This document shows positions 16,281 to 19,463 of a stretch of 64,000 nt of DNA, piece by piece. Below the pieces are notes generated by a model. That model saw only the letters and a program-made list of their open reading frames with translations. It ran no database searches and had not been told where the DNA came from. The DNA comes from Myxococcales bacterium (GTDB lineage Bacteria; Myxococcota_A; Bradymonadia; Bradymonadales; Bradymonadaceae). The DNA lies in assembly GCA_007135085.1 (NCBI GenBank), contig SLJM01000154.1, positions 293-64,292 of the forward strand. The letters are read 5' to 3'. The position numbers and the translations under genes were made by a program. Every line of letters begins with the position of its first letter. Position 1 is the first letter of the stretch.

Positions 16281-17225
16281 ATGGACAGCCACACAGATTC
16301 GGATTCACAGAATTTTGACGTCGCCATCATCGGCGGTGGACCAGCCGGGCTGAGCGCCGGGATCTGGCTGGGGCGCTTTCTCCACGACGTGGTCGTCGTC
16401 GATGCCGGTGATCCGCGAAATTGGCGGGCCCGCGAGGTCCACGGTTTTCTGGGGGCCGCCAATATTCGCCCCGCCGAACTGCGCCGCCGCGGCCAACTGG
16501 CGTGCCGTCAATACGGCGTGACCTTGATGGAGACCCACATCGACCAGGCCCGGGTGTTGGGAAAGGACAGCTTTGAGTTTGTCACCGACCAGGGAAAGAA
16601 GTTCCTCTCTCGGCGAGTCTTATTGGCCACGGGCATTCGCGACAATTGGCCAGACATACCGGACCTGAAGCGCTGCTTCGGCATCTCAGTCCACACCTGT
16701 CCCAACTGTGACGGATACGAGTCACGCCTGACCGAAACGGCCGTCATCGGCGCCGGACACCGGGCGGTATCGGTGGCGCGGGCCATGAAGACCTGGACTG
16801 ACCACATCACGATCTATACCCATGGCGAGGAGCCCATCTTCTCGGATGTGGAAGTCGAGGCATTGCGGCGTATGGAGATCGGCGTCGAGACCAGCCCCAT
16901 TTCCGGCATCGAGGAATACCATCGCCACCTGCGAGCGATCGAACTCGCCAGCGGTCGTAACAGGCCCTGCGAGCACCTCTTTCTGGCCATGGGGCAACAT
17001 CCCCGGGATCGAATGGTCGACCAATTGGGCTGCCAGACCGACGACCATGGCTTCGTCTCCGTTGATTCCCACCATCATACTTCTGTGTGGAATGTCTTTG
17101 CCGCCGGCGACATCACGCCGGGCGCTCAGATGGCGTTGCGCGCCGCCGCCGGCGGAGCCGAGGCGGCGCTGTCCATCCATCACTCCCTGATCCCGCCGGA
17201 GCGGCGGGTTCACCGACAGTGTTAA
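16281..17225 (+). CDS. thioredoxin-reductase-like FAD/NAD(P) pyridine nucleotide-disulfide oxidoreductase
   Basis: FDVAIIGGGPAGLSAG, redox CxxC motif CPNCDG, second dinucleotide fold AVIGAGHRAV. A GGAGG RBS lies 7 nt before ATG 16281. Confidence 0.8.
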   Translation: MDSHTDSDSQNFDVAIIGGGPAGLSAGIWLGRFLHDVVVVDAGDPRNWRAREVHGFLGAANIRPAELRRRGQLACRQYGVTLMETHIDQARVLGKDSFEFVTDQGKKFLSRRVLLATGIRDNWPDIPDLKRCFGISVHTCPNCDGYESRLTETAVIGAGHRAVSVARAMKTWTDHITIYTHGEEPIFSDVEVEALRRMEIGVETSPISGIEEYHRHLRAIELASGRNRPCEHLFLAMGQHPRDRMVDQLGCQTDDHGFVSVDSHHHTSVWNVFAAGDITPGAQMALRAAAGGAEAALSIHHSLIPPERRVHRQC

Positions 17226-17800
17226 CGCCGTCGCAGACGCTCGAGGATCATCTCTTCCTGGTGCTGGCCGGGAGAACGCCCCTTATAGACCGTCTCCACC
17301 TTGCCCTCCTCGTCGAGGATGATCACTCCCGGCATGACGTGCGCACGCTCGGGCAGCGTCATATCCAGAGCGTTGAGAAGTGAGTGATCTCTATCGGAGA
17401 GGATCGGAAAATTTAGGCCGAGGCGATTCATCAGCGCCCGGTTGGCGCAGTGACTGGCATCGGAGAGCCCCACCACGACGCCGCCGGTCTGTTGAACCTG
17501 GTGCATCCGATGGGACAGGGCGCGAAGCTGACGCTGACATACCGGGCAGGTCACATCCTTCATCACCACAATCGCCGTCACCCGACCGGGGGCGATCTCG
17601 TCGAGGCCCACCTCACTGCCGTTGGGAAGGGTGACCGTCGCCGCCTCCAGGGGGCTCTGCTCAGTCAGTGCTGGACGGTCGCCGTCGACATCGTGACCGT
17701 TGAGGTAGAAACCGGCCAATGCGCCCATGGCCAACCCCACAAGGGGAGCCGCCACAAAAAGTAAGCTCGCCAATAACCAATGTTGTCGCTTGATAATCAT
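17222..17800 (-). CDS. membrane-anchored thioredoxin-fold redoxin (AhpC/TSA/TlpA-like)
   Basis: N-terminal anchor MIIKRQHWLLASLLFVAAPLVGLAMGALAG, CxxC motif CPVC, and ...PGVIILDEEGKV. Trimmed from ORF-track start 17935 to ATG 17800. The stop shares a TTAA with the convergent TrxR-like gene. Confidence 0.7.
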   Translation of the reverse strand: MIIKRQHWLLASLLFVAAPLVGLAMGALAGFYLNGHDVDGDRPALTEQSPLEAATVTLPNGSEVGLDEIAPGRVTAIVVMKDVTCPVCQRQLRALSHRMHQVQQTGGVVVGLSDASHCANRALMNRLGLNFPILSDRDHSLLNALDMTLPERAHVMPGVIILDEEGKVETVYKGRSPGQHQEEMILERLRRR

Positions 17801-17895
17801 CTTTCTCGCTCTCTGGGAATTTAGACAAACCGTCAACCGTTCGCACCCGCCCGTACTATAAAATGCCTTTATCCATGCGATCTTATTCCCCACAA

Positions 17896-18064
17896 TTTCC
17901 GATTTCCGATTCACGCTTTCCGATTTCCGATTCACCTTTGCCTTGCCGTGTCACTCCCAACGGCAATTTACCCCTCACCCCACAAATCAAATTTTTCCGA
18001 TTTCCGATTCACGCTTTCCGATTTCCGATTCACCTTTGCCTTGCCGTGTCACTCCAAACGGCAA
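17896..18064. repeat. two direct copies of a 71-bp element (17896-17966 and 17994-18064), 98-bp period, one mismatch
   Basis: Each copy contains TTTCCGATTTCCGATTCAC twice. Each also carries a hairpin TTGCCGT-N10-ACGGCAA (copy 1 at 17943-17966). Confidence 0.95.
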
Positions 18065-18082
18065 ATGAAACGACCGAAATTG

Positions 18083-18184
18083 AATCGGAAATCGGAAATC
18101 GGAAATCGGAAATCGGAAATCGGAAATCGGAAATCGGAAATCGGAAATCGGAAATCGGAAATCGGAAATCGAAATCGGAAATCG
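18083..18184. repeat. heptanucleotide microsatellite (AATCGGA)n, about 12.5 perfect units plus about 2 degenerate units
   Basis: Perfect 7-nt periodicity from 18083 to 18170, then a 6-nt unit (one G missing) and a final copy. The unit is the reverse complement of the TCCGATT motifs in the 71-bp elements. No stop codon in any of the six frames. Confidence 0.95.
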
Positions 18185-18215
18185 TGAATATGGCGTTGGG
18201 GTTTGTCGGTCTTTT

Positions 18216-19463
18216 TTAGAACGTATAACCCACGTTCAGGCCCACCAGATGGGAGCCGAGCTGGTAGTTGCCGTCGACGTTGCCGTTTCGGATCTTTCGT
18301 TGATTGAGATAGATGAAATTATATCCCAGGTCGGTGCGGAAATTAGCGACCTCATAGCCCACGCCGGCGGCGAAGACATAGCGGTCGTTGTCGGGCAGCG
18401 ACGGGCCCACCGTATCATCGGGCACGGGGGTCATATCGAAGGCAAAGCCCAGACGGACTTGCAGATCGTCGATGACCTCGTATTGGCCGCCGATGCGAAA
18501 CGCGGCGGCGTCGTTCCAATCGGCGTTGACCACCAGGGGCGGATCACTTTCGCCGGGCTCGCCTTCCGGGCTCTGCTCGCTGAATTCCACCTCAACGCTG
18601 TCGTAGGCCGACCAGGTATAATAATTGACGTCCACCCCCAGCCACAGGGCCTCGGTCAACTGCCAGCCCAGACCGAGGTTGAGCGTATGCGGTATATCGA
18701 TGCTGGTCGCGATCTCCTGATCGACCATACGGTCCTCGAAGGGCGTTCCCTCCACATTTTCGCTGAACCGGGCGTGACCATGATAATCGATCTTCGCCCC
18801 GCTGCGGTAATTGAGCCCCACCGTAATGGCGTCAGTGGGTCGGTACATGGCTGCAAAGGTGCCGCCCACGCCGTATCCCACGCCGCCGAGCTCGACCTGT
18901 GCCTCCCGGTCGTCGCGTAAGATGATGGTTCGCGACTGCGACAATTCAGATCGCATCACCTGAACGCCTGCAGCGACCCCGAGATCGAGGCCCGGCACCT
19001 TATAGGCTACGTTGGGATTGACGTTGATCGTGCGCAGCGATTGAGCCTGAAAATTCTCCCGTCCCACCCAGTCCTGGGGCCAGGTGATCGCCAGTCCCCA
19101 GGGAAGGGTCACGCCCAGGCCGGCCGTAAACCCTCCGGCCACGGGGATGGCCAGGCTGAAGTTGGGGGGTGGGAAGATCGCCGCCTCCGTATTCTCCGTG
19201 ATCTCCCCGTCGATACTCTCGTAGCTGACGGAGGGCACGATAATCGTGGGACCCGCGTTGATCTCAATCCCCTGCGAAAAGGCCATGGACGACGGGTTAT
19301 AAAAGTTGGCGTTCGGTTCGTCGGGGTTGCCCGTGGCCACACCGGCCATACCGGTGGCGGTGCCGCTCTGAGCCGTATTCGCAAAGCCTGCGGCGAAAGC
19401 CGTATGCGGTGCTGCCACCAGTGTCGCGACGAGGGCAAAGCCCAAAAGATTGCCTGTCTTCAT
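18216..19463 (-). CDS. FadL/OmpP1/TodX-family outer-membrane hydrophobic-compound channel
   Basis: Signal peptide ...AAPHTAFAAGF, N-terminal hatch-like GMAGVATGNPDEPNANFYNPSSMAF, alternating beta-strand pattern, C-terminal ...LNVGYTF. Confidence 0.8.
   Translation of the reverse strand: MKTGNLLGFALVATLVAAPHTAFAAGFANTAQSGTATGMAGVATGNPDEPNANFYNPSSMAFSQGIEINAGPTIIVPSVSYESIDGEITENTEAAIFPPPNFSLAIPVAGGFTAGLGVTLPWGLAITWPQDWVGRENFQAQSLRTINVNPNVAYKVPGLDLGVAAGVQVMRSELSQSRTIILRDDREAQVELGGVGYGVGGTFAAMYRPTDAITVGLNYRSGAKIDYHGHARFSENVEGTPFEDRMVDQEIATSIDIPHTLNLGLGWQLTEALWLGVDVNYYTWSAYDSVEVEFSEQSPEGEPGESDPPLVVNADWNDAAAFRIGGQYEVIDDLQVRLGFAFDMTPVPDDTVGPSLPDNDRYVFAAGVGYEVANFRTDLGYNFIYLNQRKIRNGNVDGNYQLGSHLVGLNVGYTF

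Follow-up and report, generated by a model that had tools for sequence, protein, structure and literature searches.

A heptamer-armed foldback element between a fadL-like gene and a redoxin gene of a Myxococcales bacterium is probably one copy of a dispersed genomic repeat family

Introduction

According to papers citing Mrazek et al. (2007), among the long simple repeats of many bacteria heptamers are the most abundant, with polymerase slippage proposed as their source. Here, we analyze an intergenic locus built of such units in a 64,000-nucleotide stretch of a Myxococcales bacterium (assembly GCA_007135085.1, contig SLJM01000154.1, positions 293 to 64,292; hereafter the window), where an (AATCGGA)n array faces inverted copies of the same motif between a fadL-like gene and a redoxin gene. 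The nearest described repeats are the GGGAATC repeats of two xanthomonads, X. campestris and X. axonopodis (Rehm et al. 2015; PMC4692102). These occupy 183-186 loci per genome, contain 2 to 26 units, are 89-93% intergenic and lie on average 28 nt from the upstream open reading frame (ORF). They are transcribed, and 70-75 nearby opposite-strand pairs are capable of forming stem-loops. They have no tie to particular gene classes, no function was assigned to them and the conclusion on phase switching was negative (PMC4692102). Another heptamer, TAACTGA, shows a patchy distribution across phyla (MacGregor 2015; PMC4679880). The intervening sequences (IVSs) of 23S rRNA carry inverted-repeat stems that are cut by RNase III (PMC4990558).

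We propose, with a probability of roughly 0.7, that the locus is one copy, without a gene, of a foldback family spread over the genome, the two arms of which are tandem runs of one heptamer (GATTTCC / GGAATC-type unit GGAAATC), and that this family falls within an already described class of heptamer repeats dispersed in bacteria, a class whose function is unexplained, the Xanthomonas GGGAATC repeat being the family's closest described relative. What is new is a one-base, reversed-polarity variant of that kind of repeat, in a new lineage.

Results

The heptamer is dispersed in the intergenic regions of the genome

The genome was available as a 5.19-Mb draft of 509 contigs. Three units of the heptamer, searched with at most one mismatch, gave 123 matches genome-wide as compared to none for the pattern read backwards. 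Exact AATCGGA arrays of at least two units numbered 68 on 26 contigs and fell into 31 clusters. Short-read assemblies are interrupted by these repeats. In this genome, several contigs have one of their ends within an array, and the array count is therefore a lower bound. Crude gene calls by a codon-usage model, which reproduced the genes of the window, yielded 4034 genes covering 88.7% of the genome. Despite this high coding density, none of the 31 clusters lay inside a called gene, apart from obviously over-extended starts. The neighbours of the clusters were unrelated genes, arranged co-directionally in 11 cases, convergently in 8 and divergently in 4, and an array usually started 4-40 nt past a stop codon. 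The preliminary description of the locus had listed a phase-variable switch among its possible roles, and had suggested a genome-wide search in which dozens of copies would point to a generic element resembling repetitive extragenic palindromic (REP) sequences. Dozens were found. The locus thus qualifies as a generic REP-like element, and a dedicated phase switch is not supported.

Fourteen clusters were two-armed foldbacks, all of them with the same polarity ('-+'), that is 5'-(TTTCCGA)n, core, (TCGGAAA)n-3'. The core of these copies was variable, A+T-rich and 50-120 nt long, and cores differed among the 16 copies compared. The outer ends often carried the variant unit TTCACG(N), and the inner ends often showed GATTCAAATTT...AAATTGAATC. 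At most loci the two arms were unequal in length (for instance 4.4 versus 9.6 or 6.4 versus 2.7 units, and 2.3-2.4 units per block versus 12.7 at the locus of the window), as would be expected if, once the element had formed, its arms gained and lost units independently.

The heptamer foldback in the fadL-redoxin spacer

In the 64-kb window, three heptamer units with at most two mismatches were matched 11 times as compared to 0.00 expected from 100 shuffles, which rules out chance. The structural features first described for the locus were all recovered (Table 1). Tandem Repeats Finder reported the microsatellite with period 7, 14.7 copies, 97% matches and a score of 197, and also picked up short arrays within the left-arm blocks. 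The exact AATCGGA run covers 18083-18171 (12.7 units) and is followed by a 6-nt unit, AATCGA, and further units. Facing it, the two 71-nt direct repeats are 99% identical. Each contains TTTCCGATTTCCGATTCAC twice, making four reverse-complement double units opposite the array, and each contains one 7-bp-stem hairpin (the second at 18041-18064). Left blocks and array can pair in dozens of registers, with arms of 36-40 nt that are 89-93% complementary, as had been suggested.

When the 71-nt repeat was compared with the rest of the genome, only its positions 1-40, corresponding to the heptamer part, matched elsewhere. The core with its small hairpin and the 27-nt spacer had no other match. Since core and spacer are unique while the arms are dispersed, the 98-nt period reflects a local tandem duplication of left arm and core.

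The spacer is 415 nt long. Both flanking gene assignments were verified, and a large lipase-like gene lies upstream of fadL. The array is 283-384 nt upstream of the redoxin start.

Table 1. Features of the fadL-redoxin spacer in the window, and arrays of the same heptamer located in frame in other genomes
Feature	Position	Strand	Remarks
Right arm, (AATCGGA)n array	18083..18184	+	Ends in AATCGTG, a variant unit also present at the outer ends of other copies
Left arm, copy 1	17895..17934	+	Two (ATTTCCG)2 blocks with the variant unit ATTCACG between them; reverse complement of right-arm units; 40 nt, 93% complementary to 18081-18120
Core hairpin, copy 1	17943..17966	+	TTGCCGT, 10-nt loop, ACGGCAA; sequence specific to the locus
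71-nt direct repeat 1	17896..17966	+	Left arm and core hairpin
71-nt direct repeat 2	17994..18064	+	One mismatch, 98-nt period; local tandem duplication of left arm and core
GGAATAAG motif	17882..17889	-	Adjoins the element on the redoxin side; outside the repeat
AhpC/TSA-redoxin gene	17222..17800	-	Downstream neighbour
FadL/Toluene_X outer-membrane channel gene	18216..19463	-	Stop codon 32 nt from the array
In-frame arrays in other genomes, examples (loci L009-L124)	L010:6659-6688; L095:1232-1265; L012:1207-1238; L014:2143-2177		

Comparison with related genomes

A FadL orthologue was present in seven genomes of the same genus, at 55-62% identity. These relatives are distant (55-77% protein identity), and the fadL-redoxin order is kept in four of them. 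Their fadL-redoxin spacers measure 166-250 nt and are free of heptamers, as compared to 415 nt here. A strict finder requiring a stem plus a T-run located a terminator just past fadL in three of the seven relatives, and two more, with larger loops, were recognized by eye. Downstream of fadL, five of the seven (L126, L127, L128, L130 and L132) had the sequence GGAATA, located beyond the terminator where one was present. The window has GGAATAA(G) between the element and the redoxin gene. The absence of heptamers in the relatives and the placement of GGAATA indicate that the element fills the terminator position and leaves the redoxin-proximal region intact. GGAATAA(G) may serve the redoxin gene as a promoter or operator element. 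Changes in unit number had been expected to alter the spacing between the redoxin promoter region and upstream sequences; because the conserved motif lies on the redoxin side of the element, they would displace nothing with respect to the proximal promoter region.

Four other heptamer loci of this genome were compared in the same way. The orthologous spacers of the relatives were short, heptamer-free and mostly devoid of terminators. The idea that heptamer hairpins generally replace terminators therefore holds at fadL only, and was discarded. Sequence comparison thus presents the elements as lineage-specific additions, not as general terminator substitutes. That relatives lack the element here and at four other spacers, and that some 30 further copies stand beside unrelated genes, also argues against a switch dedicated to the redoxin gene.

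Sampling of the phylum covered 401 genomes. Apart from this genome, with 82 exact matches, only two congeners contained the heptamer triple (6 and 2 matches), the control being zero everywhere. A metagenome scan with FadL returned no near-identical strain, only one truncated relative at 62% identity. The Haliangiales contig L021 carries an array and otherwise has no similarity to this genome. The AATCGGA hairpins of the congener G007 (loci L172-L177, G007/G006) are reversed in polarity, (AATCGGA)n-loop-(TCCGATT)n, and bear additional outer arms made of AACAACN / GTTGTTN units.

Predicted RNA structure and transcription signals

For the fadL-sense RNA of the spacer (17801-18215), the predicted fold was a single nested duplex with an energy of -170 kcal/mol (z = -6.55 as compared to shuffled sequences). 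Searched against Rfam 15, the RNA gave no match at the gathering score; sub-threshold resemblances to eukaryotic miRNA hairpins (45 bits, 93 being needed) amount to 'a long hairpin', and assignment to a known RNA family was dropped. Neither a sigma-70-like promoter nor an intrinsic terminator made of a G+C-rich stem-loop and a T-run was found in 17600-18400, and a second finder detected no terminator in the spacer. The terminator/attenuator role envisaged in the preliminary description is thus left without its canonical stem and T-run, but the element does sit where relatives have a terminator. Its position makes a role in RNA 3'-end formation possible.

Relationship to described repeat classes

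The element shares with the Xanthomonas GGGAATC repeats its tandem 7-nt units, its dispersal, an intergenic fraction of about 90% or more and the proximity to an upstream stop codon, as well as frequent inverted pairs able to form stem-loops, a unit number that varies between loci and the lack of a known function. Both the strongly intergenic, genome-wide dispersal (31 clusters on 26 contigs) and the frequent nearby opposite-strand pairs (14 two-arm clusters) are traits of GGGAATC-type simple sequence repeats (SSRs). However, pair polarity is reversed with respect to Xanthomonas, in which the G-rich arrays are 'convergent'. In this genome the pairs begin with the T/C-rich arm, and the upstream gene has the T-rich strand as its sense strand. 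The definition of a GGGAATC-type SSR (at least 14 bp, at least one GGGAATC, units of the form GGGANTN) excludes the window array, which is pure GGAAATC. This unit is one base from GGGAATC, so that the locus is a one-base variant and not a strict member of the type. GGGAATC and GGAAATC units are nevertheless mixed in one array of the same genome (C302:1609-1769). A G-quadruplex reading, which calls for at least four G3 tracts, was ruled out because the unit has GG only; the G-quadruplex property reported for Xanthomonas is thereby lost. Finally, about 30 loci are present here as compared to about 185, and the host is not a xanthomonad.

Several unrelated intergenic heptamer families in one genome, a patchy phylogenetic spread and no known transfer mechanism are also features of the short tandemly repeated repetitive sequences of heterocystous cyanobacteria and of the TAACTGA repeats of Beggiatoaceae, cyanobacteria and Bacteroidetes (PMC4679880). 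The unit sequences are different, and TAACTGA repeats are mostly direct and located just upstream of start codons, whereas inverted pairs just past stop codons are observed here.

With REP sequences, their hairpin-forming doublets (REPINs) and MITEs (miniature transposable elements with inverted repeats), the element has in common that it is small, dispersed, intergenic, hairpin-forming and non-coding. A REP/MITE-like element had been one of the roles considered at the outset, and the generic part of that description stands, with 31 intergenic clusters on 26 contigs beside unrelated neighbours. The stricter criteria fail. A classical MITE was rejected since cores are not common to the copies and the core and spacer of the window match nothing else in the genome; moreover, no target-site duplication was evident by eye and the arms are expandable microsatellites. 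REP/REPIN sequences mobilized by a REP-associated tyrosine transposase (RAYT) were rejected since the repeat on both sides of the sole Y1-transposase gene (PF01797, contig C415), about 40 nt long, is unrelated. On that contig (C415:4585-5955, L135), both flanks of the RAYT-like gene carry arrays of the palindromic repeat, with the core GCGACGGTCTGGAGACCACCGGCCCCAC, in a classical REP/RAYT arrangement separate from the heptamers.

The IVSs of 23S rRNA that carry an S23p/PF05635 ORF (Coxiella, Leptospira; PMC4990558) resemble the element by a long terminal-inverted-repeat stem, plausibly an RNase III substrate, and by the PF05635 gene found amid AATCGGA arrays in this genome and in G007. In contrast, the window element lies outside rRNA, has no ORF in the 48-146 nt between its arms, and has arms of tandem heptamers instead of a unique 28-bp stem. 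A literature search for the exact heptamer array or for its peptide returned nothing relevant.

The same array in other phyla

Exact (AATCGGA)4 was found in more than 116 stretches from many phyla, including Verrucomicrobiota, Planctomycetota, Saprospiraceae, Acidobacteriota, Xanthomonas, Lysobacter and Shewanella, several genomes having multiple copies. These foreign arrays are mostly solitary, and 9 of the 10 pairs have the '+-' polarity. Arrays of (AATCGGA)4-5 were in frame within long ORFs in 55-67 of 112-116 cases, as compared to 1 of 29 in the present genome, with a strand bias of 43:12 in favor of the strand encoding KSEIGNRKSEI. Pfam searches identified genuine genes on both sides of the inserts, among them a DegT domain that extends across the insert, the Mfd RID domain, MeaB and a B12-radical SAM enzyme. 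Inserts of this kind cannot lengthen gradually within a reading frame, which points to a process that inserts preformed arrays.

PF05635 genes and heptamer arrays

The genome contains four genes of the PF05635 family (23S rRNA intervening-sequence / Avd-like four-helix-bundle), two of which stand amid heptamer arrays. On contig C302 (locus L178, C302:266-1769), about five tandem copies of the whole heptamer hairpin element, of about 185 bp each (C302:266-983), are followed by a 128-aa PF05635 gene (C302:1172-1558) and then by the mixed GGGAATC/GGAAATC array, 160 nt long. On contig C217 (L179, C217:1520-2150), the PF05635 gene is located between apparent ABC-transporter permease and ATPase genes, and its inverted-repeat arms contain GTGGTTA / AACCAC units. 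The other two genes (C181:1-680 and C138:20850-21170) lie amid a G+C-rich repeat family of small hairpins separated by TCCACCCCG-type words; that on C181 is bracketed by long inverted repeats.

G007 has a homologue of the C302 gene (61-66% identical) with complete AATCGGA hairpins on both sides. The present genome and G007, in which arrays are most numerous, were the only ones of the genus found to have this type of gene; the only PF05635 gene of G001-G006 is of another kind, vertically inherited and not accompanied by arrays. In other genera, other inverted heptamer arrays stand on both sides of the homologues. A sample of 30 PF05635 genes of the bacterial family was then considered. Exact inverted repeats of at least 12 nt (12-36 nt) joined the two flanks of 14 of the 28 genes scored (L189-L221), as compared to 8 of 300 control small genes. 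Such plain inverted repeats constitute an IVS-like cassette architecture outside rRNA. Heptamer arrays, however, accompanied 3 of the 30 family genes as compared to 5 of 300 controls, a weak signal. Conversely, 5 of 116 foreign AATCGGA loci had such an ORF, which adjoined the array at one of them, and adjacency of PF05635 genes to AATCGGA arrays was rejected as a general rule across phyla. The link between PF05635 and heptamers is therefore real for this lineage, but not general.

Discussion

In the reading that we favor, the element would have arisen in the lineage of this genome, taking the place in the fadL-redoxin spacer that an intrinsic terminator occupies in relatives. By replication slippage, each arm would then have changed in length independently, to 12.7 units on the right and 2.3-2.4 per block on the left, and a single tandem duplication of left arm and core would have created the 98-nt period. 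The element would have been kept as selfish or neutral DNA. Its likeliest effect would be passive, read-through RNA from fadL folding into the long nested duplex. By analogy, transcripts might end at this duplex, or be cleaved there by an RNase III-type enzyme, between fadL and the redoxin gene; its likeness to 23S rRNA IVSs (PMC4990558) suggests that it may be an RNase III substrate. No heritable on/off switch would be involved.

Several points weigh against this reading. Slippage at the locus is inferred, not observed, and an effect through RNase III or at the 3' end is argued from the analogy of 23S rRNA IVSs (PMC4990558). The 31 sites with the same 7-mer cannot all have been seeded by chance, so that some insertion or copying process must exist. 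Target-site duplications were not evident by eye, no systematic search having been made, and neither these nor conserved ends are established. All 14 two-arm copies of this genome have the polarity (TCCGATT)n-core-(AATCGGA)n, opposite to that of G007 and of other phyla. Lastly, in 7 of the 8 solitary arrays the T-rich strand is the sense strand of the gene with the nearest stop codon, and this may reflect selection acting on an RNA-level function.

This last bias also enters into the proposal that the foldback is an adaptive RNA 3'-end element, which replaced the fadL terminator and sets read-through into the redoxin gene as a terminator, an attenuator, an RNase III site or a block to 3' exonucleases. 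Occupation of the relatives' terminator site in a window without a canonical terminator, a predicted duplex of very high stability and arrays that typically begin 4-40 nt past a stop codon all agree with it, as do the position and the transcription of the Xanthomonas repeats (on average 28 nt past the upstream ORF; PMC4692102) and the cutting of IVS stems by RNase III (PMC4990558). But no T-run follows the 3' arm, which by symmetry is always A-rich, and the short, terminator-free spacers of relatives at four other loci speak against a general replacement of terminators. We consider this proposal possible but doubtful. A heritable on/off switch, in which gain or loss of heptamers would alter the spacing or the RNA structure controlling the redoxin gene, is extremely unlikely. 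A long perfect 7-nt tract is indeed a good substrate for slippage, and the unequal arms at other loci show that unit number changes over time. However, the array lies neither between promoter hexamers nor in the 5' end of a coding region, the placement of contingency SSRs; about 30 other copies stand beside unrelated genes, mostly at their 3' ends; and Rehm et al. were likewise led to a negative view for GGGAATC repeats (PMC4692102). Very improbable as well is an iteron-like array of binding sites for a DNA- or RNA-binding protein recognizing seven nucleotides, such as a nucleoid protein or a titrated GGA-binding post-transcriptional regulator. A conserved reader protein would explain why an identical heptamer occurs in many phyla and is amplified in several unrelated genomes, and S1, Csp or CsrA were proposed by MacGregor as readers of TAACTGA (PMC4679880). 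Against this stand the free drift of units within arrays (GGGAATC, GGAAGTC, GGAAATC), the location of most arrays of other phyla within coding sequence and the lack of an identified candidate protein.

The need for an insertion process leads to the PF05635 genes. The window element may be a gene-less derivative of a mobile PF05635 cassette whose ends are the heptamer arms, with the protein or a host factor spreading solo hairpins. Such an origin is compatible with a gene-less copy of a dispersed foldback family, the reading retained above, and the two are not exclusive; taken by itself, we find it rather unlikely. It draws on the C302 gene, placed between AATCGGA and GGGAATC arrays beside about five tandem hairpins, on its counterpart in G007 and on the inverted repeats at the flanks of half of the family genes scored. 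On the other side, the arrays flanking the C302 gene are direct and not inverted, no transposase-like activity is known for the family, and the genomes compared are kin, so that the co-occurrence counts are few and not independent, in addition to the scarcity of such genes at foreign loci. A wider version holds that GGAAATC arrays are seeded, beyond local slippage, by an active, sequence-specific insertion linked to PF05635 (Avd/S23p-like) cassettes. The window hairpin would then be a gene-less offspring, and the same process would have placed arrays of about 33 nt within the reading frames of conserved genes (mfd, degT, meaB and others) of many phyla. We put this forward as a speculative proposal of low probability.

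Taking the locus as a copy of a generic genome-wide element, we advise against annotating it as a redoxin gene regulator. The questions that it raises concern the class: why the period is of seven bases, why the same unit recurs across phyla and how new copies are seeded. With about 30 copies, one congener of opposite arm polarity and one associated PF05635 gene, the present genome offers a compact case.

Other tandem repeats of the genome

Counted by period, exact arrays of at least three units numbered 99 for period 7, as compared to 5 for period 5, 50 for period 6, 9 for period 8 and 15 for period 9. Co-existing heptamer families were AAATCGG (37), ACCACCC (11), AACCACG (7), AACCACC (7) and AAACCAC (6). 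The ACCACCC arrays showed no consistent position relative to start codons in 23 arrays inspected, and were thereby discarded as upstream-of-start elements. Four (GGGTGGT)n runs directly adjoin hairpins of the AATCGGA family (C203, C251, C341 and C404). A second, mosaic heptamer family consists of GCCGTTN / GCAGTTN runs joined to (CCCACCA)n, at C263:9840-9896, C131:27647-28112 and C468:2030-2277.

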